From an uncultured Candidatus Saccharibacteria bacterium (GTDB lineage Bacteria > Patescibacteriota > Minisyncoccia > Phycocordibacterales > JAKAEA01): a DNA stretch of 64,000 bases. A model generated the notes under the pieces. That model had not been told where the DNA came from, made no database searches, and saw only the letters and a list, made by a program, of their open reading frames with translations. The DNA is taken from assembly GCA_964577595.1 (NCBI GenBank), contig CAZNZK010000003.1, forward strand, positions 4,261 through 68,260, written 5' to 3'. The position numbers were made by a program, and so were the translations under genes. Positions 4,834 to 45,503 of the stretch are shown here, piece after piece. Every line of letters begins with the position of its first letter. Within the stretch, counting starts at the first letter, position 1.

Positions 4834-6311
4834 CCGACCAGAAAGGTTACGAGGTAGAAAAAGTATTTAGAGATAGCTTCACTGGAAAAGGTGATTTCTT
4901 TGCCCGCCCAGCAATGGCTGAGCTATTGCGCTATCTCGATGCTCATCCTAGAGATTCCTACGTGGTTATTTTTGATGACTTGAAGCGGTTCGCCAGAGAT
5001 GTGGTCTTTCACTGGAAGCTAAAACAAGAATTTAGTTCCCGTGGCATCAAACTCGAATGTCTCAATTTTACCTTTGAAGATACGCCTGAGGGGAGATTCA
5101 TTGAAACAATTATGGCGGGGCAGGGGCAGCTTGAACGTGAACAAAACCGCAGACAGGTGCTGCAGAAAATGAAAGCGAGGTTGGAGGCGGGGTATTGGTG
5201 TTTTCCAGACTTGCCAGAAGGCTACGAGTTTATTAAAAGCCCTGTGCATGGCAAATTACCCGTTCTGGTGCAGCCTAAGGCGGCAATAGTGAAAGAGGCG
5301 CTTGAGAGTTTTGCCTCAGGGAGATTAATGGAGCAGGAGGATGTGCGAAAATTCCTAGAGCAAAAAGATATACGAGACGGTAAGCCCGTTTATCTTGATT
5401 ATGTAAAGAGGATGCTTATGAGAATCTTCTATACGGGCTATATCGAATACCCACTCTGGGAGGTGAGTAGGAGACAGGCTAGACACGAGGCCTTAATTGA
5501 TTCGGCAACATATGACCGCATTCAAGAGCGATTGAATGGCAAAACCACCACTCATACTAAAAATTATCTCAATCCTGATTTTCCACTACGCAGCTTTGTT
5601 CTTTGCTCGACATGTAAACAACCAATGACGGCAAGCTGGAGCACTGGTAGCAACGCCAAATTCGCTTATTACCGCTGTAAAACAAAAGGGTGCATAGAAC
5701 GGAACAAGAGTGTGGCTAAGGGGGTTATAGAGGGTGAGTTTGAGTCAATTCTAGGCAAAATAAATCCAAGCAGTGAAGTTCTGAATCTGACCAAAGCAAT
5801 TATTGCGGATGTGTGGCAGAAGAAAATTGCTAACCGTGTAAATGAGAAGAAAGAAATAGAGCAGAAGATTCAGAGATTGATTTCCGAAAAGGAAAAACTA
5901 GTTGGACTAGCTCTGAGGGCTGCTGACGACGGAGTGAGAATGGCATACGAAGAAAAAATATCGGAAATAGTCGGAATAAGCAGAGTTCTAAATAATTCTC
6001 TAGAGTCCTTTGATAGACATGTCCCAAACGTTGAAACCGCATTGAATATCGTATTCGACTTCTTAAAAAATCCTTTGAAACAATGGCAGAAGGGGAATAT
6101 CCATACCAAAAAGCTAGTTCTAAGACTAGTGTTTGAGCAGAATTTGGCATACAGCCGAAAAACTGGGTTTGAAACTGCTATTTTGTCGCTACCTCTAAGG
6201 GTATTTGGCCTCCCAGAGGCTCAAAAATCGATGCTAGTGGAGATGCGCGGAATCGAACCGCGGTGCAGGAGGGATTCAATGGATGATTCTACAGCGTGTA
6301 GCTGCCTTTGA
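4737..6311 (+). CDS. large serine recombinase / integrase
   Basis: N-terminal resolvase catalytic domain (MQKSLIYCRVSSQRQ..SLESQ). Recombinase domain present. Zinc-ribbon (CSTCKQPM...YYRCKTKGC) and coiled-coil C-terminus. The last about 25 codons are antisense of the tmRNA T-arm (..MRGIEPRC..), i.e. the ORF crosses the attachment junction. Confidence 0.9.
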   Translation: MQKSLIYCRVSSQRQKIEGHGLESQEHRCQQLADQKGYEVEKVFRDSFTGKGDFFARPAMAELLRYLDAHPRDSYVVIFDDLKRFARDVVFHWKLKQEFSSRGIKLECLNFTFEDTPEGRFIETIMAGQGQLEREQNRRQVLQKMKARLEAGYWCFPDLPEGYEFIKSPVHGKLPVLVQPKAAIVKEALESFASGRLMEQEDVRKFLEQKDIRDGKPVYLDYVKRMLMRIFYTGYIEYPLWEVSRRQARHEALIDSATYDRIQERLNGKTTTHTKNYLNPDFPLRSFVLCSTCKQPMTASWSTGSNAKFAYYRCKTKGCIERNKSVAKGVIEGEFESILGKINPSSEVLNLTKAIIADVWQKKIANRVNEKKEIEQKIQRLISEKEKLVGLALRAADDGVRMAYEEKISEIVGISRVLNNSLESFDRHVPNVETALNIVFDFLKNPLKQWQKGNIHTKKLVLRLVFEQNLAYSRKTGFETAILSLPLRVFGLPEAQKSMLVEMRGIEPRCRRDSMDDSTACSCL

Positions 6312-6650
6312 TCGGCGCATCACTTTTTGCAAAGTGGTACCCCATTTAAGCCTTACGGGTAAGAAAGAAGCAAAATTCCCGGAAGGCCGAGTCGCTTATT
6401 TCGGCAGGCGGCGCGACAGGCGCTTGCTATATTCCGAGTATGAGCATCGGGATGTGACTGATCGGACATCAATCACGCGATGTCGCTTAGGCCGTAGCGT
6501 AAGCGAATGCAGGGATCCCCTTAAAATAAGGAGAAGCTACTGCACCAAGTGCGTTTTTGGCACTTAAAAGGTTTGTGGCAGATTAAGGAGTTACCACAGC
6601 TCCACGTCGCTCATCCAAAGAGCAAACTCCTGTCTAGGCCGATCATCCCC
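6238..6650 (-). ncRNA. ssrA: tmRNA (ssrA)
   Basis: On the minus strand: 5' GGGGATGATCGGCCTAGACAGG... and 3' ...CGCGGTTCGATTCCGCGCATCTCCA (T-arm plus acceptor strand pairing with 5' GGGGATG). CCA is not encoded; the next bases are CTA. Adjacent to smpB. A candidate tag frame ends ...AFAYATA-TAA, but this is uncertain without a covariance model. Confidence 0.75.
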
Positions 6651-13233: not shown

Positions 13234-13247
13234 GATTTATATTAGTG

Positions 13248-13321
13248 TCCACCCCCTTGGAGTCGAACCAAGGACCGCCGAGGTATAAGCTCGGTGCTCT
13301 AACCAACTGAGCTAGGGGTGG
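13248..13321 (-). tRNA. tRNA-Ile with anticodon UAU (reads AUA)
   Basis: Hand-folded cloverleaf. Acceptor CCACCCC/GGGGTGG. D-arm GCTCAGTTGGTTAGAGC. Anticodon stem CCGAG/CTCGG with loop CTTATAC (anticodon TAT). T-arm CTTGG-TTCGACT-CCAAG. Discriminator A. CCA not encoded. Confidence 0.7.
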
Positions 13322-31763: not shown

Positions 31764-32543
31764 ATGCCTCTGGCCCTTATTATTTTATTCGCCTTTATTC
31801 TGGGCACTATCATCGGTAGTTTTTTGAATGTCATCATTTTGCGCTGGAATACGGGCGCGAGTATTGCCGTTGACCGGTCGCGTTGTTTTTCCTGCGGTAA
31901 AACACTGACGTGGTATGAACTCGTGCCGCTTTTCAGTTTCTTGGTGCAGGGCGGGAAGTGTCGCGGCTGTGGTTCGCGCATAAGCTGGCAATACCCGCTG
32001 GTGGAATGTGTGACAGGCCTGCTCTTTGCCCTCACAGCGTGGCTTTTTCCGCCTTTGACCGCTTTGGCTATGGCGACCGACGCTCTCTACTTTGCGGCCT
32101 GGAGCGTGTTGGTGATTATTACGGTCTACGATTTGCGCCATAAAATTATTCCTGACACCTTCAGCTATCTTTTTGCCCTCATTGGGTTAGCGGTGCTGGT
32201 TTTGCATGTTGCTAGCGGCGGCACGCTTGATTGGTGGAATGTGGCGGCCGGCCCTCTGCTCGCATTGCCGCTATTTCTCCTGTGGCTCGTTTCTGGCGGC
32301 CGTTGGATGGGCTTGGGCGACCCGAAGCTCGTGCTGGGCATTGGCTGGCTCCTGGGCCTAGATGGCGGGGGAGCCGCGCTGGTGTTGGCGTTCTGGATAG
32401 GGGCGATTGTTGGCATCGGGCTCATTATCGCTCGCCGAGTGGGCCTTAAGAGCGAGATTCCTTTCGCCCCATTCCTTATTGCCGGCACGCTCATTTGTTT
32501 TGCCACAGGTCTCACTTTCACCGGCTTAGTGGCGCTCATATAA
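31764..32543 (+). CDS. pilD: prepilin peptidase PilD (A24 family)
   Basis: N-terminal tetracysteine (CFSCGK...CRGCG). Catalytic Asp motifs (..VYDLRHKIIPD.. and GLGDPKL). Confidence 0.85.
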   Translation: MPLALIILFAFILGTIIGSFLNVIILRWNTGASIAVDRSRCFSCGKTLTWYELVPLFSFLVQGGKCRGCGSRISWQYPLVECVTGLLFALTAWLFPPLTALAMATDALYFAAWSVLVIITVYDLRHKIIPDTFSYLFALIGLAVLVLHVASGGTLDWWNVAAGPLLALPLFLLWLVSGGRWMGLGDPKLVLGIGWLLGLDGGGAALVLAFWIGAIVGIGLIIARRVGLKSEIPFAPFLIAGTLICFATGLTFTGLVALI

Positions 32544-34539: not shown

Positions 34540-35880
34540 ATGAAAAATTCTTTTCAAAAAAACGGTTTTGCTCTTCTCTACGCTGTTCTAGTAACGGGGG
34601 CGCTTATGAGCTTGGTTTTTGCCACGCTTAATATCGTGTACAAACAAGCCGCACTTTCTAATTTGACTAAAAATTCCGCAGTCGCTTTTTACGCTGCCGA
34701 CAGCGGTATAGAGTGTGGTCGTTACTGGAGCGCTTACGGCGCGTTTAATACTGGCAACCCCGCGGTTAACAATAATCCTGTCAGTAGTGGCCCATTTTCC
34801 ACTCTTGATTGTGCGGGGAATACGCCATCCTCCCTTTCCATCAATGCGGCGCTGGTTAATCCTCTCACGCTTAATTCCGGTTCTTCTCCTTTGTATGATC
34901 CTGCTTTTCCATTTTCCAATCCTGCTGAGTTGTCGTACTCGTTGAGTAACGTGTACTCCGGTGTCTCTAATGCGCCGCAGGCCGACGTAACTATTTGGCA
35001 GAATGGCCAGTTTGCTCCCGACGCAACACAGAGTTATTTTACTACCGCCATTCTTTCTACTGGTTCAAATAATAACAATTCAAGTGATCCCTTGCGCGTT
35101 CAGCGTGGTGTGGGTACGGAAGCGGCTATCACGCAATGCCTGGCGCCGGCGTTTACCTTTGGGCTAAATGGAAAGTATCCAAACTCACTATGGACAGGCT
35201 ACCAGACTTTCACTTCAATTGTCACACCATTTTTTCCTGGTATGGGCATCAACGCTCTTGGTGTTCGTCTCGGCGCCACTCTGGTAAATAACAAAACACT
35301 CCTTCCGTCAAATTTTTTTCCGTATCTATCATATTTTTCGGCGGATAATTGGAAGTTTACTCCCCAAAGTGTCGCTAATGCTCCGGCAGTGATTTCTGTG
35401 ACGGCGACCTTGCTGCAAGTGCCCTCTAGTCCTCATTATCAGTTTGGTTATTATGTTGGAGACGGATTAAATACTGCGGCGGCGGTAAGCTCTTTTGTGC
35501 CGATTGCGGATAATGAAAATGGTTCTTTTACGGTTGCCATACCAGCAAGTCAAGATGTGCATTTTGCCGTCTGTACGTTTACGGATAGTGACACTATTGC
35601 TTCGTGTCATGACAGTTATGCAAGCGGTAGTGATGCCTCATTTGCGTTTTGGTCTACGGATTTTTCGGCTAATACGACCGACTCTGCTCACGCACACACT
35701 ATTTCTCTTTCGTTGCCGATGCCTAATACCCCTTCTGGGCTGATTCAAAATCCAGGAGATCCAACCAATACTAGAATAGGGGGAAAATATGTCTTCGGTT
35801 TCGATACTGGTAGTAGTATTAGCAATGCATCTACCTACGCTAACGTGGTTGTTTTGTTACAGCTTGTCGGTTGCCCATAG
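34540..35880 (+). CDS. minor pilin (PilX-like, large)
   Basis: Start moved to MKNSFQKNGFALLYAVLVTGALMSL at 34540. The track ORF from 34480 overlaps the previous gene. Confidence 0.7.
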   Translation: MKNSFQKNGFALLYAVLVTGALMSLVFATLNIVYKQAALSNLTKNSAVAFYAADSGIECGRYWSAYGAFNTGNPAVNNNPVSSGPFSTLDCAGNTPSSLSINAALVNPLTLNSGSSPLYDPAFPFSNPAELSYSLSNVYSGVSNAPQADVTIWQNGQFAPDATQSYFTTAILSTGSNNNNSSDPLRVQRGVGTEAAITQCLAPAFTFGLNGKYPNSLWTGYQTFTSIVTPFFPGMGINALGVRLGATLVNNKTLLPSNFFPYLSYFSADNWKFTPQSVANAPAVISVTATLLQVPSSPHYQFGYYVGDGLNTAAAVSSFVPIADNENGSFTVAIPASQDVHFAVCTFTDSDTIASCHDSYASGSDASFAFWSTDFSANTTDSAHAHTISLSLPMPNTPSGLIQNPGDPTNTRIGGKYVFGFDTGSSISNASTYANVVVLLQLVGCP

Positions 35881-35932
35881 GGCGCGGCTCAAAATCGCGC
35901 TGTGCATAACTTTAAAAGTGCTGCGGGGTATA

Positions 35933-38900
35933 ATGAACCTACTTATTAAAGGGGCGGTTTCGCTATTATTCATAATTTTTATCATGATGTTCACTAAATT
36001 TTTGAAGATTGTCACGGGAGCAGCTCTGTCGTTTGTAGTTGTAGCGGTAGCGGGGCAAACGAGTGTTGCTCAGGCGCAAAGTATTGCGACCCCCTCAATT
36101 TTCATAAGCAATCTTAGCTTAAACCAATCTTCGGTGGCGGCCGGCGGCATCATCACCGGTTCATTCCTGGCTACTAACGGTTCAGCCAATAGTGCTGCCA
36201 ACATCACGTACTCAGTGTCGTTGGTGGGAAATATAGAAAAAAATGGCCTTATCGCCGATAGTACCTATGATAGTAAAAATTTTGGCCCGCTCTTTTTTAC
36301 AGCGCACGAAAAAAAGCAGGTGAAATTTAGCTACACCTTACCATCTGGCACGAGCGGTGCCAAGCTCGGTATTGAAATACTGATTTCTCAGGCGGGCAAC
36401 GAGCCGCTTGGTTGGGACATCGCTTCGCTGGCCGTAACGGGTGGTAGTTCGGTCGTGCCCGCAGTAACCATCACCACAGTTTCTTTGAAGGTGGCCAGTA
36501 GTACTTTTGATGTTCTCTCTGGTCCTACGGTTCAGAGCGGCCAGCCAATCGCCCTTCAGTTTTCCGCAAAAAGTAGTGTGGCAACAACACTTATTCCTAA
36601 AATCAGTATCTATTCTTTTGATTATTCTGGCCAGCCGATAGTTGTTTCCAATATGCCGGCGATACCGGTGACGGCGGCCTCGGCGCCGCAGAATTTTTCT
36701 GTGGACATGAGCTCGCTCGTTTCCAAGCCGCAAGTGTATGCCGGCCAGGCGGTTTTGACCACAACTGATGGCGTTGCGGTTAGTCCAATTATTTTTTTCC
36801 GCTACATTGTTGGTGGCTCGGTTTACAACCTGCGCTCAGTTACTGCTGACAAAACGGCCGTGGTTAATGGGGGTACTGTGGCGATTACAGTAAGCTACAG
36901 TGGTACGCCAGCCGTCCTCACATCAAATGGTGACATGGCTTCTTCCTCTGTTTCTTCGGGTACTGCAACAGTCGCCGCTACGCTTTACAACGAACACAAC
37001 CAAGAAATTGGCAGTGCAAAGCAAGATGTTGATTTTAGCCAGAGTGGCAATGTAACTTTGCCTGTTATAGTAAACGCTAGTGCCAACGCTTTACGAACCG
37101 TAGTGACCGTAACGAAAAATGGTGTGGTTGTTGTTAATTATGGTGGCGATCTTTCTCCCAACTTTGCCGCGGAAGCACAAGAAGCAATCGCTGCCGGTCC
37201 CGCGACGACCGCGGGTTCCCAGGGAACGCAAGCGATGCTTGAAGATGTGGGATTTTTGGTTTTGGCGATTTTTATTCTCTGCTCTGTCTGGTATTTAAAA
37301 CGGCGCTCGCGAAACAATGACGACACAAACCAACCGCCATTTTCGCCAATCGCTATGCTCCTAGCTATTTTGATCGGTACGAGCTTTCTGGCTGGCGGAG
37401 TAACTGTTTCTCATGCCGATCTTAGTCAAAACATTACTTCGTGTGGCGGTACAAATTTAAAATGCACAGTTTTGGATGGTCACTATAACGCTTCTTCGTA
37501 TGTCAGTGGCTACAACATGAATTTCCAACTCAATAAGCCTACCGACAACGTTCCGGTCGGAGTGCAATTTCCATTGAGCTTTATTCTCGACGACTCCACT
37601 TGCCAAAATAAGGCATACAACGTGGTGTATTATGTTCAATACGGCGCACCAACCGGAGCAAATAATCCTTACGATGCTTCAATACCGGTATATAGCCAGG
37701 ATGCCTGGGGCACTATTGGCACAGCATCGGGCGGCACTAATAAGCACGTGGGTCGAATTCTCACTGGTGGAACATACGTGATTGGGCCCAATAGTGCTGG
37801 TGGCGCGCAGAACAATAGCGATGATTCGGCTTCTTCTGGTCAGGAATTTACCGCTCTTGACGCTCAGCAAGTAGCATCTTATGGCGGCAAAAACACCATG
37901 ACAATTTATTTTGCCGAGGAGCCGGTAGGGTTTGATGCGAAAAAACTTCCTCACATGTATGCTCAAGCCAAGGCAAGTGGTGATTTTAGTGCTTTCAGGC
38001 CTATTGTTAGTGGCGGCTATAGTAACAACTACGCATACCTAATTCTTACAGTCGCCCCCATCACCGACACGATGCCGGTGGGGGCGCTTGGGACTGTAAT
38101 AAATCCTCTCTTGCCATCGGCGGCTATTGCCGGTTGGGCGTGTGATATTGACGATCCGTCTGCTACAGCATTGGTTGATATTTATATGGCCACTTCCACT
38201 AATTCTTTTGAGATTGTCTATCCAAGTTATCCAGCAAATGCGCAAAACTCCGACCCGAACACCTCCTCTGCCACCATAGCCAGTAATTGCGGTGGTACTA
38301 CGGTCCACGCTTTTCTGATTCCAATCCCACCACGGTGGCAAGAGGATGGTCCAACTACGCTTAGTGTTAAGGCGTTTGCACGGAATATTAATTCTTCTGG
38401 CAATACACCATATGACTACATAAATACTACTAAAGGTCCAGGTTCTGACCCAGAGCCATTCCCGGTGTATGGTGGCTCGCACGTCTTGCCTATACAAACA
38501 TTTACCCCTCCCACACCCATCGCCCCAACAGCTTCCGGCGTCTGCGTGAATAATATTCCCGTCCTCTCGCTCAGCTGGAGTTCTATGACCGATAGTCAAA
38601 GTGTTAATGGTGACACTCTAAGTCAGGGTGTGGCCGGATACCAATTACAGATTTCCACAGATTCAGCATTTGGTTCAGAATCGACGAAAAAAATTGGTAG
38701 CCAAAATACGACCCAAGCGACCATTTCTGGTACAGATAGCGGTTTCACTCCAGCATTAACTATTGCTCTGAACACACAGTATTATGCCCGCATTGTGTAT
38801 ATAGCCACGGGTGCCGTGGGTGCAACCGCTAATGCTACTACTCCGGCATCGTGCGGTAGTGGTGGCGGTGGTGCGCCGGTAGTCAATTTTGGCACCTCGG

Positions 38901-39631
38901 CCAGTATCTATCCTGGCGGCTCAATAGCATTAACGTGGACCGCGGTGAATCCAACGCAAGGCATCGCTCCCACGCATTGGTGGAATTGGTTCTTGCCTTC
39001 CGCATATGCTGATAGTAGCGGAATTACCTGCACTGCTTCAAATAGTTCCGGCGGATTAACCGACTCGACGACAGGCTGGAGCGGTAACGTTTCTGCGAAC
39101 GGTTCGCGCGAGGTTGGTCCATTAAGTGACAATGTTAGTCATAAAATTACCTTTAACTTAACCTGTACAAATTCAAGCGGCTCAACAACTCCTCCGCCTG
39201 TGATTGGAACTATCATTACCACTAATGGTGGTGGAACTGTACCGACTTTCAGTTTGTCATTCGCGCAAAATGGAAACCCTTGTCCGGCGAGCGGCAGTGG
39301 GCCATGCACTCCCGTCTGCAATGCTCCACTTACTATTGGTGCGCAGCAAATCAACGACTCAGATACCAGTAAAACAGATGGAACTAACTATTGCGTGGAA
39401 ACAAATGGTAGTTCGGGCTGGCCGGGCGAAACGGTATGGGAAAATTATAGTACCCTTCAGGGTGTGTCTATTCCAGTACCAAGTAAAACGCTGCAATATA
39501 CGCTCACTTGTTATAACTCGGCTGGTGCCAGTCAGCCGGCTAATGCCACAGTGAATGCGCCTACGGGGGGCTGTACTACGCAAAATCCTGGCAATGGTGG
39601 TACTACGGGCGGTAACTCGTTCCCATTCTAG
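35933..39631 (+). CDS. giant surface protein (about 1232 aa) with signal peptide and an internal TM pair, possibly pilus-associated
   Basis: Start moved to MNLLIKGAVSLLFIIFIMMFTKFL..AQA (signal peptide). Two adjacent hydrophobic helices lie near residue 450 (FLVLAIFILCSVWYL / IAMLLAILIGTSFLAGG). Both large domains are S/T/G/N-rich. Confidence 0.75.
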   Translation: MNLLIKGAVSLLFIIFIMMFTKFLKIVTGAALSFVVVAVAGQTSVAQAQSIATPSIFISNLSLNQSSVAAGGIITGSFLATNGSANSAANITYSVSLVGNIEKNGLIADSTYDSKNFGPLFFTAHEKKQVKFSYTLPSGTSGAKLGIEILISQAGNEPLGWDIASLAVTGGSSVVPAVTITTVSLKVASSTFDVLSGPTVQSGQPIALQFSAKSSVATTLIPKISIYSFDYSGQPIVVSNMPAIPVTAASAPQNFSVDMSSLVSKPQVYAGQAVLTTTDGVAVSPIIFFRYIVGGSVYNLRSVTADKTAVVNGGTVAITVSYSGTPAVLTSNGDMASSSVSSGTATVAATLYNEHNQEIGSAKQDVDFSQSGNVTLPVIVNASANALRTVVTVTKNGVVVVNYGGDLSPNFAAEAQEAIAAGPATTAGSQGTQAMLEDVGFLVLAIFILCSVWYLKRRSRNNDDTNQPPFSPIAMLLAILIGTSFLAGGVTVSHADLSQNITSCGGTNLKCTVLDGHYNASSYVSGYNMNFQLNKPTDNVPVGVQFPLSFILDDSTCQNKAYNVVYYVQYGAPTGANNPYDASIPVYSQDAWGTIGTASGGTNKHVGRILTGGTYVIGPNSAGGAQNNSDDSASSGQEFTALDAQQVASYGGKNTMTIYFAEEPVGFDAKKLPHMYAQAKASGDFSAFRPIVSGGYSNNYAYLILTVAPITDTMPVGALGTVINPLLPSAAIAGWACDIDDPSATALVDIYMATSTNSFEIVYPSYPANAQNSDPNTSSATIASNCGGTTVHAFLIPIPPRWQEDGPTTLSVKAFARNINSSGNTPYDYINTTKGPGSDPEPFPVYGGSHVLPIQTFTPPTPIAPTASGVCVNNIPVLSLSWSSMTDSQSVNGDTLSQGVAGYQLQISTDSAFGSESTKKIGSQNTTQATISGTDSGFTPALTIALNTQYYARIVYIATGAVGATANATTPASCGSGGGGAPVVNFGTSASIYPGGSIALTWTAVNPTQGIAPTHWWNWFLPSAYADSSGITCTASNSSGGLTDSTTGWSGNVSANGSREVGPLSDNVSHKITFNLTCTNSSGSTTPPPVIGTIITTNGGGTVPTFSLSFAQNGNPCPASGSGPCTPVCNAPLTIGAQQINDSDTSKTDGTNYCVETNGSSGWPGETVWENYSTLQGVSIPVPSKTLQYTLTCYNSAGASQPANATVNAPTGGCTTQNPGNGGTTGGNSFPF

Positions 39632-39777: not shown

Positions 39778-41874
39778 CTAGGATTTTGACGTAGCGATCT
39801 GGATGAATGCGTAGAGGTCTGAGACGAGAGCGTCGGTCAAGTCGCTGCCGTTTAATTGAGGAACAGTAGCACCGTTGGGAATCAGGAACGCCCCAATCTC
39901 CATGTTGCTACCACTTGTTAGGGCACTAGTATCAATAGTGCCGCTCCAAGTGCCGTCAGCGTTGATTTTGTAGACTGACCCTGAGGGTTGAGGTCCTGTC
40001 CACCCTCCTATTTGAGGGGAGTAGATGTACACAGCAACACCTTGATACTGAGTAGGGTCAACATCAACGACTCGTCCAGCTATGTCCATGGTTGGATTTG
40101 CGAAAGTCGGAACGGGTGTGAACAACACTTCGGGTGGGGGTTCAAGAACCGTGTAGGACACCGGGTCGCTTAAAAGCGGTGCGCCCGGAGACAGAATCTC
40201 AACCCAGACGGTGACGGTGCCGAGCGTGTCCGTGGGCAGATCAAACTCTGGGAGTTGATATCCTAGTGTGCCCAGACTAGGTTCTACGTCAGTGGTATAC
40301 ACGCCGCCTACTTGGTGAGGGGAGGAGTCGTTGGGGCCTTGGATCAGCCACACATAGGTATATGTGCCGGCACCAGTGCAGGAAGTGATGGCACCAAAGG
40401 CCTCATCGGGCGCATATTGGTTAATATGAGTACCGTCGCTCACGTTCACACTAACGCCCGTTATGACGAATGGCGTAACTACGTCGTATGTGCCTGTGCC
40501 TGTGCCGTATTCGGGAGCATACGGCATGCTCACAATCTTCAGCAAGACCGTACAACTGCCCTTCAGGTTGCTGGGCAAACCGGTAAAGGTCGGCACTGTT
40601 GCTACGCCATTGACCATGGCGGTGGTTAATGTGCCACTGACTTGCTGGGTAATCAGGCTAGATGTGGAACCATTAGGGATGATGCCGCATTCCCAAACAT
40701 AACTCACGGGCCCACTGCCGGTACCGTTGATGGTGCCCGAGGCCGTGATGATTTCGCCCTGGCCAAAAACCAGAGATCCGTTCGCGTATGTAGGATCCGG
40801 AGTGATGTTGATAGTCACCCCGGTTACATCGGTCACTTTGGATGTGTCCGCCGACATTACCGTGTAGGAACTCGCACTGCTGATGAACCCTTTGGAGGCG
40901 CCGGAGTCGATAACCAACTGCACATTGCAGTTGCCCAAGCAAGACTTGAGTAGGCTAGCAGGGGGAACGGTTGCGACGCCGTTGACCATCTTTGCGGTGT
41001 GGACGCTTCCAACTCGCTTGAAGGTGCCGCCGGGCATCTCCACGTCCCACTCATAGGTGAATGGGCCAGTGCCTGTGCCGGTAGCATTGCCAGAGGCAAT
41101 AGGGGCGGTTTTGTTCTGAATGACCGACGTGGTGTTCAGAACAAAAGAGACGTCGCTCACAGTGATGGGCAGGGTGAGTGCCTTGGCCGTCACGGAATAC
41201 TTGCCGGCATGGCCGAACGAGTCTTCCGTGATTACCTTGTAGGAATACCAGGTGGCGGCGTTGAGGCCGGAATCCACATACGTGGGGCTGGTTTGCCAGC
41301 CGCTGGTGTGGCCGCCTTTGGTGCCGCAGACGAAATCGTACAGCAGAGCGCCTGCCGCAGGGTCGTCGGTGGCGAGGGTGGCCGTCATGGTGATGGACGA
41401 ATTGTCCACCGCCACGGGGAGCGTGTCCCAGGTGCTGGGGTTGGGTGTTGGGCTTGGCGGAATGACGGAAAAGTTCACGACATTGCTCACCAACCCTGCT
41501 CCAACGCCGGAGTCAATAACGACTTCTGCGCTGGAGCTACCCACCGTTGCCGTTGACAGGCCTTTGTAGCCGGTCAGCGTCACGGAACCATTCCTCATGG
41601 TGGCCGTGCCATCGCGGGTGCCGATTCTCATGAAGTCGTTACTGCCGGGTGTTTGAATGGCCCAGTAGTAGAGGACTTTGCCGGAATCGCCCGTGGCACT
41701 GGTGAGAGTGACGGAGGCGACGTCGCCTTTCTTTTGGACGACGACGTCGGCCTTGATGCCCAGTGTGACATTGGTCACGGTTGGGGGAACAATTGGCGCG
41801 GTGCTGAGGAGCACTCGCGATTCTAGCGCTTCAAGGGTAAGGAAGCGCTCCTGCGGCAAACGTGCGCGCTTCAT
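39778..41874 (-). CDS. secreted protein with tandem Ig-like/beta-sandwich repeats; GC-rich, probably horizontally acquired
   Basis: Start set at MKRARLPQERF.. (GGAG SD 5 nt upstream; the track ORF starts 17 codons earlier). Repeated ..MVNGVATVP.. modules. Codon usage is strongly GC3-rich compared with the neighbours. N-terminal RFLTLEALESRVLLS motif. Confidence 0.8.
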   Translation of the reverse strand: MKRARLPQERFLTLEALESRVLLSTAPIVPPTVTNVTLGIKADVVVQKKGDVASVTLTSATGDSGKVLYYWAIQTPGSNDFMRIGTRDGTATMRNGSVTLTGYKGLSTATVGSSSAEVVIDSGVGAGLVSNVVNFSVIPPSPTPNPSTWDTLPVAVDNSSITMTATLATDDPAAGALLYDFVCGTKGGHTSGWQTSPTYVDSGLNAATWYSYKVITEDSFGHAGKYSVTAKALTLPITVSDVSFVLNTTSVIQNKTAPIASGNATGTGTGPFTYEWDVEMPGGTFKRVGSVHTAKMVNGVATVPPASLLKSCLGNCNVQLVIDSGASKGFISSASSYTVMSADTSKVTDVTGVTINITPDPTYANGSLVFGQGEIITASGTINGTGSGPVSYVWECGIIPNGSTSSLITQQVSGTLTTAMVNGVATVPTFTGLPSNLKGSCTVLLKIVSMPYAPEYGTGTGTYDVVTPFVITGVSVNVSDGTHINQYAPDEAFGAITSCTGAGTYTYVWLIQGPNDSSPHQVGGVYTTDVEPSLGTLGYQLPEFDLPTDTLGTVTVWVEILSPGAPLLSDPVSYTVLEPPPEVLFTPVPTFANPTMDIAGRVVDVDPTQYQGVAVYIYSPQIGGWTGPQPSGSVYKINADGTWSGTIDTSALTSGSNMEIGAFLIPNGATVPQLNGSDLTDALVSDLYAFIQIATSKS

Positions 41875-41883
41875 GGTGACTCC

Positions 41884-41898
41884 TTGCCCTAAGGGCAA
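41884..41898. promoter_or_regulatory. perfect 15-bp palindrome TTGCCCTAAGGGCAA just upstream of the SD of the minus-strand gene
   Basis: ttgccct-a-agggcaa. Position is consistent with an operator or 5'-UTR hairpin. Confidence 0.35.
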
Positions 41899-42007
41899 AA
41901 ATTGTAAAAGAACTTCTAACGACAACGTGTCGTCAGAAAGTGTTTCCTTACAAATTATACCGCATAGCTAAAGAAAGTCAAGGGCTCGAAGGGGATAATG
42001 GGGGAGT

Positions 42008-42037: not shown

Positions 42038-42106
42038 GCTATTTTTAGGACTTGCGACAAGATAACTTTAAGTATATTCTTTTCCGTAGAAAGGAGGTGA
42101 TATGCC

Positions 42107-42268
42107 ATGAGTAAAAGAATGGATAATTTTCAGACCGTCGTGGCCGCTATTCTTGTTGCTATACTGTTTTGCGCCATTGCAATTCGTGGATTCGGCATGG
42201 TCGCGGCGAACAATTCCATTCCCGACTCTCCATTCAATCTCAGTGTTCAACAAATGGCTAATCACTAA
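42107..42268 (+). CDS. small membrane peptide (53 aa) with very strong SD
   Basis: AAAGGAGGTGA 7 nt before the ATG. MSKRMDNFQTVVAAILVAILFCAIAIRGFGMVAANNSIPDSPFNLSVQQMANH has one TM helix. Followed by its own terminator. Below the 60-aa track cutoff. Confidence 0.5.
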   Translation: MSKRMDNFQTVVAAILVAILFCAIAIRGFGMVAANNSIPDSPFNLSVQQMANH

Positions 42269-42275
42269 ACCCCAG

Positions 42276-42310
42276 AACGCCTGGCTCGGAAACGGGTCGG
42301 GCGTTTTTTA
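42276..42310 (+). terminator. rho-independent terminator
   Basis: AACGCCtggctcggaaacgggtcGGGCGTTtttta. Confidence 0.6.
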
Positions 42311-42431
42311 GGTCCTCTTGATTTCCGTCGATATTTGAGTTAATCTTTGGTCGGATTAAGAAAGGAGGTTATTAAAAAAGTTCTTTGTTGTTCTTTGTCA
42401 CATTTTTCAAACCCACAGAAAGGTCCCCGTT

Positions 42432-42575
42432 ATGAAGAAAGAAGCGTTTGATCCGAAGGAAATTGTGGCGTTGCCGTTGGAGCCAACACCGCTCAAAAAT
42501 AACTGTGCGATGCCGTGTCCAAGTCCCGACCCGCAGACTGTTGTGTCGCTGGGATACAAGGTCAAGATTTCATAA
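42432..42575 (+). CDS. candidate RiPP precursor peptide (47 aa)
   Basis: ATG..TAA ORF not in the track: MKKEAFDPKEIVALPLEPTPLKNNCAMPCPSPDPQTVVSLGYKVKIS. Weak SD gaaagg 8 nt upstream. Acidic/helical leader-like N-half, and a Cys/Pro-rich C-half. Immediately followed by a perfect hairpin and a radical-SAM/RRE enzyme gene. Confidence 0.5.
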   Translation: MKKEAFDPKEIVALPLEPTPLKNNCAMPCPSPDPQTVVSLGYKVKIS

Positions 42576-42587
42576 CCATCAACCCAA

Positions 42588-42617
42588 GAGGCGTCTCCGC
42601 AATTGCGGAGACGCCTC
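42588..42617 (+). terminator. perfect 13-bp stem-loop (gaggcgtctccgc/aatt/gcggagacgcctc) between precursor and maturase genes; attenuator-like
   Basis: Perfect inverted repeat, followed only by gATTATT (a weak U-tract). This matches the read-through terminators that set precursor:enzyme stoichiometry in RiPP operons. Confidence 0.55.
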
Positions 42618-42638
42618 GATTATTAGGAGTAAGTTAAA

Positions 42639-43922
42639 ATGTTGTATCGTTTGATAGACGATGTTCTGTACAGAAAAGAAGTTTTTGGTTCCATTATTTT
42701 TAATCGGAGAAATCGTCGGTATCATCACTTCAATAGATCAGCATCGGAGGTTATTGAGCAGTGTGTGTTGCCCAGCTCCTCCTCAGATATCGCACATGCG
42801 ATATCTGAAAAAGAAAGATTCGTCGATGTGAGTAGCGAAAATGTCGCAAGCTTTCTTGAATACCTGACCAGTATCGGACTTCTAGTTGAAATGCCAGAAG
42901 GTAGCCGGTGCGCAAAAAGCGGCGCGGAGATGTTTTTCGTTGAAAGAGAAATCTTCCCGAAAAATTATCTAGCATCTCCGACAACGGTTGCGCTTTATGT
43001 GACGTACAAATGCCACAGACATTGTCGACATTGTATATCCGATGCGAATTCGGAAACGAAAAATGGTCTCCACGAATTGTCGACCAAGGAGTGGTTTCGC
43101 ATAATCGACACTCTAAAGAGTAAGGGTGTCGTACAATTAGTTATTACCGGCGGCGAACCATTTTTCCGCAAAGACCTCGTGCAAATCCTAGACTATGCAG
43201 ACCGTTGCAGGTTCCGGATGTTTGTTCTAACAGAAGCAGGGTTGTTGAACGAAGGGTTGGTACGCAGTGTTGTTGCTCTGAAGCACCTTGATCAGTTGCA
43301 AATTAGCATGGATGGACACACTGCCGAATTACACGACTTCATTAGGGGTGAGGGAGCGTTTGCTACCCTGATGTCGAAGTTGCAAATTTTGAAAGACGCA
43401 GGCGTGAAATTTACGACTGCTACCCTAATGCATAGAGAAAATTACCTCTATTTGCCGGAAATTGCTAAGCTGGCAAAGGAAACGGGAGCAGGGAAGCTCT
43501 GGATAACACCTCTGACGCCTTTTGGTCGCGGACGAGATATCAACGACCTGGTTCTTTCTAACGAACAGTTGGCTGCTGTTTCTCGGGAATACTGTCAACT
43601 GATCAGAGACGGAATCGTGGAACCTGCCAATGACTTCTGGAAAATTGCCAGTCAGGAACAGGGATCTTTCGGGGGAGACTTCAATCCGTTGAAAGATAAC
43701 CCGTTTGAATTCAGTCGTGCTATATATACGCTATCGATTGATCCGTCCGGAAACTGCTATGTGGATAGCAAGTCCAGATCGTTGGACGTTTTGGCTCTTG
43801 GAAATATTTTAACCAACGATTTTGATAGCATATGGCATAATTCTGTTCTTGAAGGCGTGCGTAAGGGTTACGAATTTGGCGATTGGACATTCTTCGATTA
43901 TCTCGGCAAGATAGCAGAATGA
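42639..43922 (+). CDS. radical SAM enzyme with N-terminal PqqD-like RiPP recognition element, no SPASM/twitch cysteines
   Basis: Residues about 10-90: ..VFGSIIFNRRNRRYHHFNRSASEVIEQ...SSENVASFLEYLTSIGLLVE, PqqD/RRE-like. CxxxCxxC = YKCHRHCRHC. GGEP motif LVITGGEPFF. The C-terminal about 150 aa contains only two isolated Cys. Confidence 0.8.
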   Translation: MLYRLIDDVLYRKEVFGSIIFNRRNRRYHHFNRSASEVIEQCVLPSSSSDIAHAISEKERFVDVSSENVASFLEYLTSIGLLVEMPEGSRCAKSGAEMFFVEREIFPKNYLASPTTVALYVTYKCHRHCRHCISDANSETKNGLHELSTKEWFRIIDTLKSKGVVQLVITGGEPFFRKDLVQILDYADRCRFRMFVLTEAGLLNEGLVRSVVALKHLDQLQISMDGHTAELHDFIRGEGAFATLMSKLQILKDAGVKFTTATLMHRENYLYLPEIAKLAKETGAGKLWITPLTPFGRGRDINDLVLSNEQLAAVSREYCQLIRDGIVEPANDFWKIASQEQGSFGGDFNPLKDNPFEFSRAIYTLSIDPSGNCYVDSKSRSLDVLALGNILTNDFDSIWHNSVLEGVRKGYEFGDWTFFDYLGKIAE

Positions 43923-44009
43923 CACAGTAGCCCGATTTGAAAACCAAACACCAACCTCTTAGCTTACTGTTAGGCGAAGAGGTTTTTTATTAGGAAAAAT
44001 CGTCTTTTA

Positions 44010-45503
44010 GTGTTAAAATGGCAATTACGTATGGAACTCGTCGATAATTATGATCAAAAGAAAAACGCCACTCGCATACTTGATGAGTTGCGAAATTCTG
44101 GTGTGAATCCGTACCCCGAAAAGTTTGATAAACAGGCCACGCTAGCACAAGTCCGAGAATTAGAATCTGGTACTCCAGTCGCAACAGCTGGTCGAATCGT
44201 GTTGTTGCGCACTATGGGTAAGCTCACATTTGCCCATATTCAGGATTTTTCCGGACGTATGCAAATAGTTGTGAAAGAAGATAGTCTTGGCAAGGAAAAA
44301 TATACACGGTTTCTGAAAGTCTTTGGGCTCGGCGACCACGTTGGCTGTAAAGGAAAGATATTTATTACCAAGGTTGGTGAGAAATCAATTTTGGTGGACG
44401 AACTCGTTTTTCTCGCCAAGTCTTTTTTGAAAATGCCAGAGAAGTGGGTTGGAATTAAGGATCAGGAGGTTAAATATCGTCAACGATACCTTGATCTAAT
44501 CGCTCACCCAGATACTATGAAGGCCTTTATTTTTCGCAGTGACCTCATAAGGCATATCAGAGAGTTCTACTGGAAAAATGATTTTTTTGAAGTTGAAACA
44601 CCGGCCTTGATGCATCAAGCAACGGGCGCAATTGCGCGGCCGTATATCACAAAAAATAATGCCCTCGATATAGACTTATTCCTTCGTATTTCCCATGAAC
44701 TACCGCTCAAAGAGCTTATTGTCGGGGGATTTGATCGTGTTTTTGAGCTTGGTAAGGCTTTTCGCAACGAGGGGGTTGATGTATCTCACTTGCCAGAGCA
44801 TACGCATCTGGAACACTACGTTGCCTATTGGAATTATGAAGACAATATGGATTTTACGGAAAAAATGTTTCGGTACCTGTTCGAAGAGTTACATATTCCA
44901 GAAAGAATATCCACTGAAGATGGTGGCTCAATTAGCCTCGGGTTTCCATGGCGGAGAGAGAATTTTATTGATTTAGTAGAAAAGGAAACCGGAATACGTG
45001 TGGGTGATTTTCACGAGGCCGACGCGCTTCGTTTAGAAATCAAAAATAAAAAATTTCATTTTGAGGGCATCGACACGTTGTCTTTGGCGGGGCTCGTAGA
45101 TAATCTCTACAAGAAGATAGTTCGACCTAGGTTAATAAATCCGACCTTCTTGTACTATTATCCAATTGAACTTCAACCTCTAGCGCGAAGGAATGATACA
45201 GACCCTAATATAGCCGATCAATTTCAGTTGGTTATAAATGGTTGGGAAATTGTGAAAGCTTATAGCGAGCTTGTTGATCCGTTAGATCAAGAACAGAGAT
45301 TCATGGGGCAAGCGGATGCAAAGAAAAAAGGTGCCGATGAGGTCATGGAAATTGATCGCGACTACATTAAAGCCATGTCGTATGGGATGCCTCCGATTTC
45401 AGGATTTGGCATGGGTGTTGATAGGTTGGTTGCTCTTTTGCTTGGCAAATCGAATCTTCGCGATGTCGTGTTGTTCCCGTTATTGAGGCCGGAAGGGGAT
45501 TAA
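44010..45503 (+). CDS. lysS: lysyl-tRNA synthetase (class II)
   Basis: OB-fold anticodon-binding N-terminus. Class II motifs (..FRNEG.., ..GGFDRVFE.., GMGVDRLV). Could start at MELVDNYDQ, 7 codons in. Confidence 0.9.
   Translation: MLKWQLRMELVDNYDQKKNATRILDELRNSGVNPYPEKFDKQATLAQVRELESGTPVATAGRIVLLRTMGKLTFAHIQDFSGRMQIVVKEDSLGKEKYTRFLKVFGLGDHVGCKGKIFITKVGEKSILVDELVFLAKSFLKMPEKWVGIKDQEVKYRQRYLDLIAHPDTMKAFIFRSDLIRHIREFYWKNDFFEVETPALMHQATGAIARPYITKNNALDIDLFLRISHELPLKELIVGGFDRVFELGKAFRNEGVDVSHLPEHTHLEHYVAYWNYEDNMDFTEKMFRYLFEELHIPERISTEDGGSISLGFPWRRENFIDLVEKETGIRVGDFHEADALRLEIKNKKFHFEGIDTLSLAGLVDNLYKKIVRPRLINPTFLYYYPIELQPLARRNDTDPNIADQFQLVINGWEIVKAYSELVDPLDQEQRFMGQADAKKKGADEVMEIDRDYIKAMSYGMPPISGFGMGVDRLVALLLGKSNLRDVVLFPLLRPEGD

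Follow-up and report, generated by a model that had tools for sequence, protein, structure and literature searches.

How does a radical S-adenosylmethionine (SAM) enzyme act on a peptide when it carries a peptide-binding domain but lacks an auxiliary iron-sulfur cluster? This question is raised by two adjacent genes, one for a 47-amino-acid (aa) peptide and one for a 427-aa radical SAM protein, in a 64,000-nucleotide (nt) stretch of contig CAZNZK010000003.1 from an uncultured Candidatus Saccharibacteria bacterium, here referred to as the window. To our knowledge, nearly all characterized radical SAM peptide maturases with a fused recognition element for peptides that are ribosomally synthesized and modified post-translationally (RiPPs), the RiPP recognition element (RRE), need auxiliary Fe-S clusters. 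A first-pass annotation of this DNA had listed the 47-codon open reading frame (ORF), a hairpin, the 427-aa enzyme, a 53-aa ORF, and an orphan Shine-Dalgarno (SD) sequence, all of which were found again at the same positions, and had interpreted the locus as a RiPP-like peptide-enzyme pair. We come to the same interpretation, which held on each of the three points at which it could have failed, namely, the nature of the enzyme's N-terminal domain, the presence of a small peptide ORF beside orthologous enzymes, and the conservation of the 47-aa ORF. With a probability of roughly 70%, the genes form a two-gene RiPP-type cassette in which an RRE-radical SAM enzyme without an auxiliary cluster modifies the core of the precursor peptide by a reaction other than thioether formation. 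The cassette is a genuine and rare radical SAM RiPP-type system that is missing from curated collections, and its chemistry is probably unusual. From the sequences we infer the boundary between leader and core, the binding mode, the type of reaction, and the fate of the product, and these are worded accordingly below.

The first 90 or so residues of the enzyme, previously described as a PqqD-type RRE, gave weak matches that were restricted to RRE families. The Pfam PqqD model matched the window enzyme with an E value of 1.7e-3 and its orthologue P0002 with 5.8e-4, both below threshold, and residues 1 to 105 scanned alone against NCBIfam matched the lasso-peptide PqqD chaperone (3e-4) and MftB (0.012) and nothing else. 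In a profile search of the PDB, SuiB aligned from query residue 5, across the RRE of SuiB. An AlphaFold2 model of the enzyme (predicted local distance difference test score [pLDDT], 91; predicted template modeling score [pTM], 0.90) shows four strands followed by three helices at residues 2 to 78, with a pLDDT of about 90 or higher. Because the weak but RRE-specific profile matches and the modeled fold agree, we assign the N terminus to an RRE.

The central domain is that of a radical SAM enzyme, as annotated before. It contains the cluster motif C125-x3-C129-x2-C132 (CHRHCRHC) and a TGGEP sequence, matches Pfam Radical_SAM (PF04055) over residues 120 to 278 with 1.1e-20 (74.9 bits; cut-off, 29.5), and has a fold that agrees with known radical SAM structures.

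SPASM and twitch domains ligate one or two auxiliary Fe-S clusters through the cysteine motif CX9-15GX4C ... CX2CX5CX3C ... C or, in twitch domains, a subset of it. The C-terminal domain of the window enzyme is conserved among orthologues better than any other part of the protein, and it retains the β-hairpin and helix of such a domain at residues 364 to 408. Over residues 365 to 408, the Pfam SPASM model gave subthreshold matches to the window enzyme (0.12; 13.2 bits against a cut-off of 21.5) and to the second orthologue, P0003 (2.5e-4), and the domain scanned alone matched no NCBIfam family. Beyond the cluster trio, the enzyme has cysteines at positions 42, 91, 190, 319, and 373, so that, as noted earlier, the C-terminal third holds only the two isolated residues C319 and C373. 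The earlier statement that there is no SPASM/twitch auxiliary cluster was borne out column by column in an alignment with 49 SPASM-bearing relatives: the SPASM columns that contain cysteine in 44 to 47 of the 49 are occupied in each of the three orthologues by F358, D376, and a gap, and the remaining motif cysteines of the relatives fall on W416 or on gaps. With all SPASM/twitch cysteine positions replaced or deleted, no auxiliary cluster is expected. C373 lies on the retained twitch-like β-hairpin (strand 372 to 374 of the model), three residues before D376.

This loss is not a peculiarity of a single protein. A search of 5.8 billion proteins yielded two orthologue clusters only, P0002 (74% identical) and P0003 (56% identical), and full-length relatives at 25 to 37% identity were added when 1.84 billion representatives were searched exhaustively with HMMER, with about 40 family clusters at E values below 1e-40. 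In the resulting 27-member family alignment, the CX3CX2C motif supplies the only invariant cysteines. A profile hidden Markov model (HMM) of the family scored its members at 447 to 559 bits, and these have 0 to 3 cysteines in their last 130 residues; the next-best proteins fetched reached at most 177 bits, and nearly all of them have 4 to 10 C-terminal cysteines. None of the family members reached an NCBIfam cut-off; the top scores, against MftC and AhbD, were below half of the threshold. The cluster-less RRE-radical SAM proteins thus form a rare and discrete clade, to which the window enzyme belongs and which no curated family captures. A metagenome scan with a five-sequence alignment returned one full-length locus only, and the matches listed for the 27-member profile in a word-indexed database were mostly from one distant subfamily.

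Several members of the clade stand in gene neighborhoods of their own. Loci L001 and L008 come from a metagenome-assembled genome labelled "uncultured Bdellovibrionales," and the earlier framing of the system as one of small-genome CPR-like bacteria is thus not supported. Some family loci do contain tailoring or export genes, with SAM methyltransferases in L005, L054, and L051. In L057 (3-1514), two tandem family radical SAM paralogues, the first of them cut by the contig end, are followed by a gene for a major facilitator superfamily (MFS) transporter. P0085 (595 aa) is a family radical SAM enzyme with a fused C-terminal GNAT acetyltransferase domain. The distant subfamily (about 27% identity), which includes a member from Chryseobacterium oryctis, sits in a larger cluster (L047, 1873-8640; L048, 753-6102; L049, 1912-8219) that encodes a ClpB-N-like AAA ATPase, the cluster-less radical SAM enzyme, a GNAT protein, two divergent paralogues resembling tryptophanyl-tRNA synthetase (TrpRS; scores of 66 and 44 bits, where the trpS cut-off is 177), and one or two peptides (about 66 aa) with the C-terminal sequence DSDIKQDCE. 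A fatty-acid hydroxylase gene is present in L048 and L049 and an MFS transporter gene in L047, and the L049 cluster lies between nonribosomal peptide synthetase genes.

The substrate proposed for the window enzyme is the 47-aa peptide MKKEAFDPKEIVALPLEPTPLKNNCAMPCPSPDPQTVVSLGYKVKIS. The window, L001, and L005 have the peptide and enzyme genes side by side, and so do L054, L055, L051, L058, and L059. The peptides directly upstream of the orthologues P0002 and P0003 are MTKEIFDPKEIVALPLEPTPLKNNCAMPCPSPSPDTIASLGYKVKIS and MKSEIFDPREIVALVPEPTPLKNNCATPCPSPDSERIANLSLDK; more distant counterparts, which were sought only where the contigs of enzyme relatives could be read, are MQKKAFKPAEIVIVPQEPSPLINHTAAPCPAPNLDSMKRILKGKN (L054), ...FFAPREIAVITPEPSILLNHSVGTAPAPSAEVILSLEEK (L055), MKRKLKPVAVQFIAPQPAVMLNYSKSSVPAPKG (L051), ...MRILKPSTVNVVRPQPSVMINHGEISAPAPGAHIAKEPKK (L058), and ...ALLLNYTKQGGSIAPIPE... 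(L059), the last being encoded downstream of the enzyme gene. The precursors range from 33 to 70 aa, and an SD sequence of its own precedes each copy. A word-indexed search for homologues of the peptide returned the identical peptide only, and the relatives were recovered from the neighborhoods of enzyme relatives.

Could the small ORF be open by chance, or serve as a leader or in regulation, with the enzyme acting on another substrate? Several gene callers missed it (L002 to L004 and L006), and the peptide has no family match in Pfam or NCBIfam, including the NHLP/Nif11 leader models. However, the window and L001 peptides are identical at 41 of 47 positions, and 19 of these 41 residues are specified by a different codon, which indicates purifying selection on the protein and not carry-over of DNA. 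The peptide is kept beside every orthologue and alongside enzymes of 74%, 56%, and about 30 to 37% identity, each time with its SD sequence, and the enzyme bears a peptide-binding RRE. The ORF is therefore more than chance, and conservation has effectively refuted that reading. As a side observation, the Logan contig L003 (1-1803) matches L001 with 100% identity only downstream of a point within the peptide gene; the DNA 5' of this point is unrelated to L001 and gives a shorter peptide start, MKKEIVALP..., which could reflect an assembly join or a real rearrangement.

An alignment of the eight precursors leaves P8, N23, P30, and P32 (window numbering) as the sole invariant residues after the initiator methionine. 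The leader probably spans residues 1 to about 22 (with F6, P8, EIV, and EP), and the core probably begins at N23, where seven of the eight precursors read N-[N/H/Y]-[C/S/T] and the third position is C, T, S, or G overall. The first-pass annotation had stressed cysteine as the key residue, and this emphasis did not survive the wider comparison. Cys25 and Cys29 are both kept in the three close orthologues, within NNCAxPCPSP, which is what one would look for in a maturase of the sactipeptide or ranthipeptide type that links one or both of these cysteines to a carbon of another residue. In the wider family, however, Cys25 is replaced by T, S, or G and Cys29 by A or V, and half of the precursors (4/8) have no cysteine at all, which makes cysteine crosslinking unlikely. 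Thioether and ether formers, moreover, activate the Cys or Thr by means of an auxiliary cluster (PMC9389541), and every SPASM/twitch ligand has been lost here. With neither an auxiliary cluster nor a conserved substrate cysteine, we consider thioether formation very unlikely.

Other known peptide chemistries were ruled out as well. A core defined by an N-x-S/T/C "sequon" is incompatible with the glycine at the third position in L058; the aromatic-x-x cyclophane of triceptides does not fit the asparagine at the aromatic position in the window subgroup and is made by SPASM enzymes; and formylglycine formation of the anSME kind fails on the missing C/S-x-P-x-R motif and the missing clusters.

The profile scores bring up a further alternative, in which the peptide is a sacrificial scaffold for an intracellular cofactor or small molecule, as in the biosynthesis of pyrroloquinoline quinone (PQQ) or mycofactocin. 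The best NCBIfam scores of the window enzyme are to MftC and AhbD (about 3e-34) and, further down, PqqE (3e-25); MftC and PqqE likewise use an RRE (MftB or PqqD) to act on a small peptide, and the RRE described here resembles MftB and PqqD. Such a peptide would be used inside the cell, which would explain why no exporter or protease is nearby; in addition, the neighbors are housekeeping genes, and the source contigs are no longer than about 500 kb. However, the scores are far below the cut-offs (119 bits against 265 for MftC and 88.7 against 381 for PqqE), in the known systems the RRE is a separate protein, and MftC- and PqqE-type enzymes need SPASM clusters. Furthermore, mftD, mftE, mftF, pqqB, and pqqC are all missing from the cassette and its vicinity, and the conserved residues lie in the middle of the peptide and do not form a C-terminal Val-Tyr or an E-x3-Y motif. 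We regard a scaffold role as improbable.

For the RiPP-type cassette that we favor, we propose the following course of events. The RRE would bind the conserved leader of the peptide, roughly from F6 to P20. The sole [4Fe-4S] cluster, held by C125, C129, and C132, would cleave SAM to give a 5'-deoxyadenosyl radical, and this would abstract hydrogen within the conserved core sequence, N23-[N/H/Y]-x5-P30-[S/A]-P32. The first candidate for the ensuing reaction is Cα epimerization, with C373 of the enzyme as a possible hydrogen donor, and the second is a crosslink of a new kind, with the invariant Asn and Pro residues as its anchors. Since the clade has kept the fold without any of the ligands, its chemistry must be a different one, and what its substrates conserve is Asn and Pro, not Cys. 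Epimerization is our leading guess because there is a precedent in the proteusin epimerases, which lack a twitch auxiliary cluster and are the only RiPP radical SAM enzymes known to be cluster-less (PMC13012085), and because C373 is a candidate donor. All three orthologues have this residue, as do 19 of the 27 family members. Its incomplete conservation, together with the invariance of the Asn and Pro residues, leaves room for a new crosslink.

Several observations weigh against this proposal, in whole or in part. The chemical step is a best guess that draws on analogy. In known epimerases, the enzyme cysteine that donates the hydrogen is strictly conserved (PMC8326336), and eight of the 27 family members have V, A, Y, or S in place of C373. 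The invariant N and P-x-P suggest a site-specific reaction rather than generic epimerization, and the precursor is without the NHLP/Nif11 leader of the proteusin type. Finally, no protease or exporter gene adjoins the cassette in the window, as had been noted before; the genes around it encode a 715-aa protein on the minus strand without a Pfam match, lysyl-tRNA synthetase (LysRS), and LigA.

Similar to SkfB, SuiB/StrB, CteB, and AlbA, the window enzyme has an N-terminal RRE, a radical SAM core, and a C-terminal extension, and its gene adjoins that of a small precursor with a hairpin in between. It differs from these enzymes (14 to 18% identity) in lacking the auxiliary-cluster cysteines, its substrate has neither a conserved Cys nor a conserved Lys/Trp pair, and there is no dedicated protease or exporter. 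With the proteusin epimerases PoyD, OspD, and AvpD it shares peptide modification without a twitch/SPASM auxiliary cluster (PMC13012085), and C373 is a candidate counterpart of their hydrogen-donor Cys, which also lies in the C-terminal part; the precursors described here, however, are short and without their leader type, and C373 is not strictly conserved. The PoyD family (IPR030950) was not among the NCBIfam matches listed, and PoyD and OspD were compared by description only. The streptococcal RaS-RiPP enzymes NxxcB, which forms an Asn β-thioether, and TqqB, which forms a Thr-Gln ether, also act on short conserved Asn- or Thr/Cys-containing motifs in small peptides (PMC9389541). NxxcB and TqqB activate Cys or Thr through an auxiliary cluster and refuse exchanges among Cys, Ser, and Thr (PMC9389541), whereas the core position described here varies among C, T, S, and G and the auxiliary cluster is absent.

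For natural-product enzymologists, two genes and a 47-aa substrate make a compact test case. The precursor motif and the enzyme profile can be used by genome miners, and rules based on SPASM domains are unlikely to detect such loci. Specialists would not be greatly surprised by the system unless its chemistry, or its linkage to aminoacyl-tRNA synthetases, turns out to be new.

As for this linkage, the cassette lies directly upstream of lysS in the window, in L001 to L004, and in L005 (lysS at 7425-8885 in L001 and 4291-5787 in L005), that is, in three lineages in which all other flanks differ. The enzymes are 74% (window-L001), 56% (window-L005), and 55% (L001-L005) identical and the LysRS proteins 34%, 51%, and 40% identical for the same pairs. 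The two trees disagree, which implies that the cassette (or lysS) moved horizontally with the adjacency kept. Composition is only mildly supportive of a transfer: the G+C content at third codon positions (GC3) of the L001 cassette is 0.41 to 0.63 compared with 0.25 to 0.27 for lysS and the DUF2268 gene, but host genes reach 0.39. The adjacency could be either chance, given the few samples, or a real functional tie.

In the latter case, the modified peptide might act on LysRS, with lysS as the target or a resistant copy, or its maturation might include a tRNA-dependent step. Apart from the persistence of the adjacency in spite of the incongruent trees and the higher GC content of the L001 cassette, this idea gains from other synthetase genes near family enzymes. 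In L055 (2242-5046, minus strand), the P0079 locus, a 934-aa gene resembling that for leucyl-tRNA synthetase is convergent with the enzyme gene and ends 45 nt after it, and the cluster of the distant subfamily combines two TrpRS-like paralogues with GNAT and MFS transporter genes. On the other hand, lysS forms a transcription unit apart from the cassette, since a terminator and the promoter of lysS lie between them; the lysS product passes a housekeeping equivalog cut-off; the enzyme has no synthetase neighbor in L054, L051, L058, L059, and L057; the cassette contains no transferase; and only three lineages and a modest compositional signal, with another L001 gene at a GC3 of 0.39, are at hand. 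A tie to synthetases is thus a doubtful proposition. The same holds for the combined version, in which the cluster-less clade would install an unseen modification on an Asn/Pro-x-Pro core and the cassette would have been selected beside synthetases, its product acting on or depending on a synthetase; this, too, we think unlikely. A functional tie would link a RiPP cassette with the translation machinery, for instance in the form of a LysRS-directed modified peptide with a linked target gene, and would amount to a new functional class of RiPPs, passed between distant bacteria as units of 1.6 kb.

The two-gene cassette itself is self-contained. It runs from a putative promoter through a 5' untranslated region (UTR), the precursor gene, a hairpin, and the enzyme gene to a terminator (Table 1). 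Its extent of about 1.6 kb follows from the homology between the window and L001, which stops after the terminator.

Table 1. Positions of the cassette elements and of neighboring features in the window
Feature	Coordinates	Strand	Evidence or remark
53-aa ORF with a single transmembrane segment	42107..42268	+	Strong SD AAAGGAGGT at 42090-42098
Terminator-like site after the 53-aa ORF	42284-42302		Followed by a T run
Putative promoter	42318..42346	+	Read from sequence: -35 TTGATT (42318-42323), 17-nt spacer, -10-like TAATCT (42341-42346)
SD-like element AAAGGAGGT in the 5' UTR	42361-42369	+	No ATG, GTG, or TTG usably placed after it
Precursor peptide gene, 47 aa	42432..42575	+	Homologous peptides beside the enzyme in seven further loci
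Perfect 13-bp hairpin with a 4-nt loop	42588..42617	+	42588-42600 pairs with 42605-42617; between peptide and enzyme genes
SD sequence AGGAG of the radical SAM gene	42625..42629	+	Read from sequence; 9 nt ahead of the ATG
Radical SAM enzyme gene, 427 aa	42639..43922	+
RRE (winged helix of the PqqD kind; residues 1 to about 90)	42639..42908	+	Profiles and fold
Radical SAM core (residues about 110-300)	42966..43538	+	C125/C129/C132; GGEP SAM-binding motif
C-terminal domain (residues about 301-427)	43539..43922	+	SPASM/twitch remnant without cluster ligands
Intrinsic terminator	43953..43988	+	AACCTCTT...AAGAGG, then TTTTTT; closes the cassette
lysS, lysine-tRNA ligase (downstream neighbor)	44031..45503	+	NCBIfam lysS_bact, 489 bits (cut-off, 428)

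The hairpin between the two genes, described before as a perfect 13-bp stem, is one of the RNA-level elements of the cassette. The intergenic region folds with -29.5 kcal/mol compared with -12.3 ± 3.0 kcal/mol for shuffled sequences (z = -5.7), and a stable hairpin occupies the same place in six of seven family loci (z from -3.4 to -5.7). Between the window and L001, the stem shows one compensatory pair, and the hairpins of L005, L054, and L058 are built from unrelated sequences. A clear U tract follows the hairpin in L055 only, and hence these structures, although conserved, are not uniformly canonical terminators. The hairpin may act as a partial terminator or as a stabilizer, and by analogy with other RiPP operons it may set the ratio of precursor to enzyme mRNA, probably keeping the former above the latter. 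At the 3' end, the window, L001, and L005 each have a strong terminator after the enzyme gene, and that of L001 is homologous to the terminator of the window, with compensatory changes in the stem.

The putative promoter has a counterpart at the equivalent place in L001 (TTGACA, 17 nt, and then TAATCT). A consensus promoter scanner made no call at 42318..42346, and the DNA upstream of the cassette gave no convincing alignment between the window and L001; the assignment is suggested by a short element common to the two, TAATCTTT(T)GG. The SD-like element in the 5' UTR was correctly reported as an orphan. In L005, its counterpart AAAGGAGGG is followed by an upstream ORF (uORF) that starts with TTG and ends 16 nt into the peptide gene, and L001 has no equivalent of the element. 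It may be a 5' mRNA stabilizer or may belong to a uORF with the noncanonical start ATT at 42371. The SD-like element and the possible uORF together take up 42361-42451 in the window and 2583-2691 in L005, and the uORFs would end 16 to 19 nt inside the peptide gene.

The 53-aa single-transmembrane ORF upstream of the cassette has the SD sequence and the terminator-like site that were attributed to it. The suggestion that it encodes a partner or immunity peptide fared less well, since the ORF is absent beside the orthologues, where the upstream genes encode a DUF2268 protein (L001) and a methyltransferase (L005); it was therefore ruled out as a conserved partner. Its product contains the sequence NNSIPDSP, which loosely resembles NNCAMPCPSP of the precursor core.

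The DNA just upstream of the cassette holds two very large ORFs, at 35789-39631 (plus strand, 1,280 aa) and 39778-41925 (minus strand, the 715-aa protein mentioned above), and their products appear rich in Ser, Thr, and Gly by eye. Elsewhere in the window, a LOOT RNA (Rfam RF03000) was recognized at 2079-2197 on the plus strand (81.4 bits; gathering score, 46.4), and a transfer-messenger RNA with the long tag peptide AKNALGAVASPYFKGIPAFAYATA is encoded at 6235-6650 on the minus strand. A tRNA-Ile gene with the anticodon TAT is located at 13247-13321 on the minus strand; most bacteria read AUA with a lysidine-modified CAT tRNA, and a TAT tRNA-Ile is thus uncommon. A prepilin peptidase is encoded at 31764-32543.

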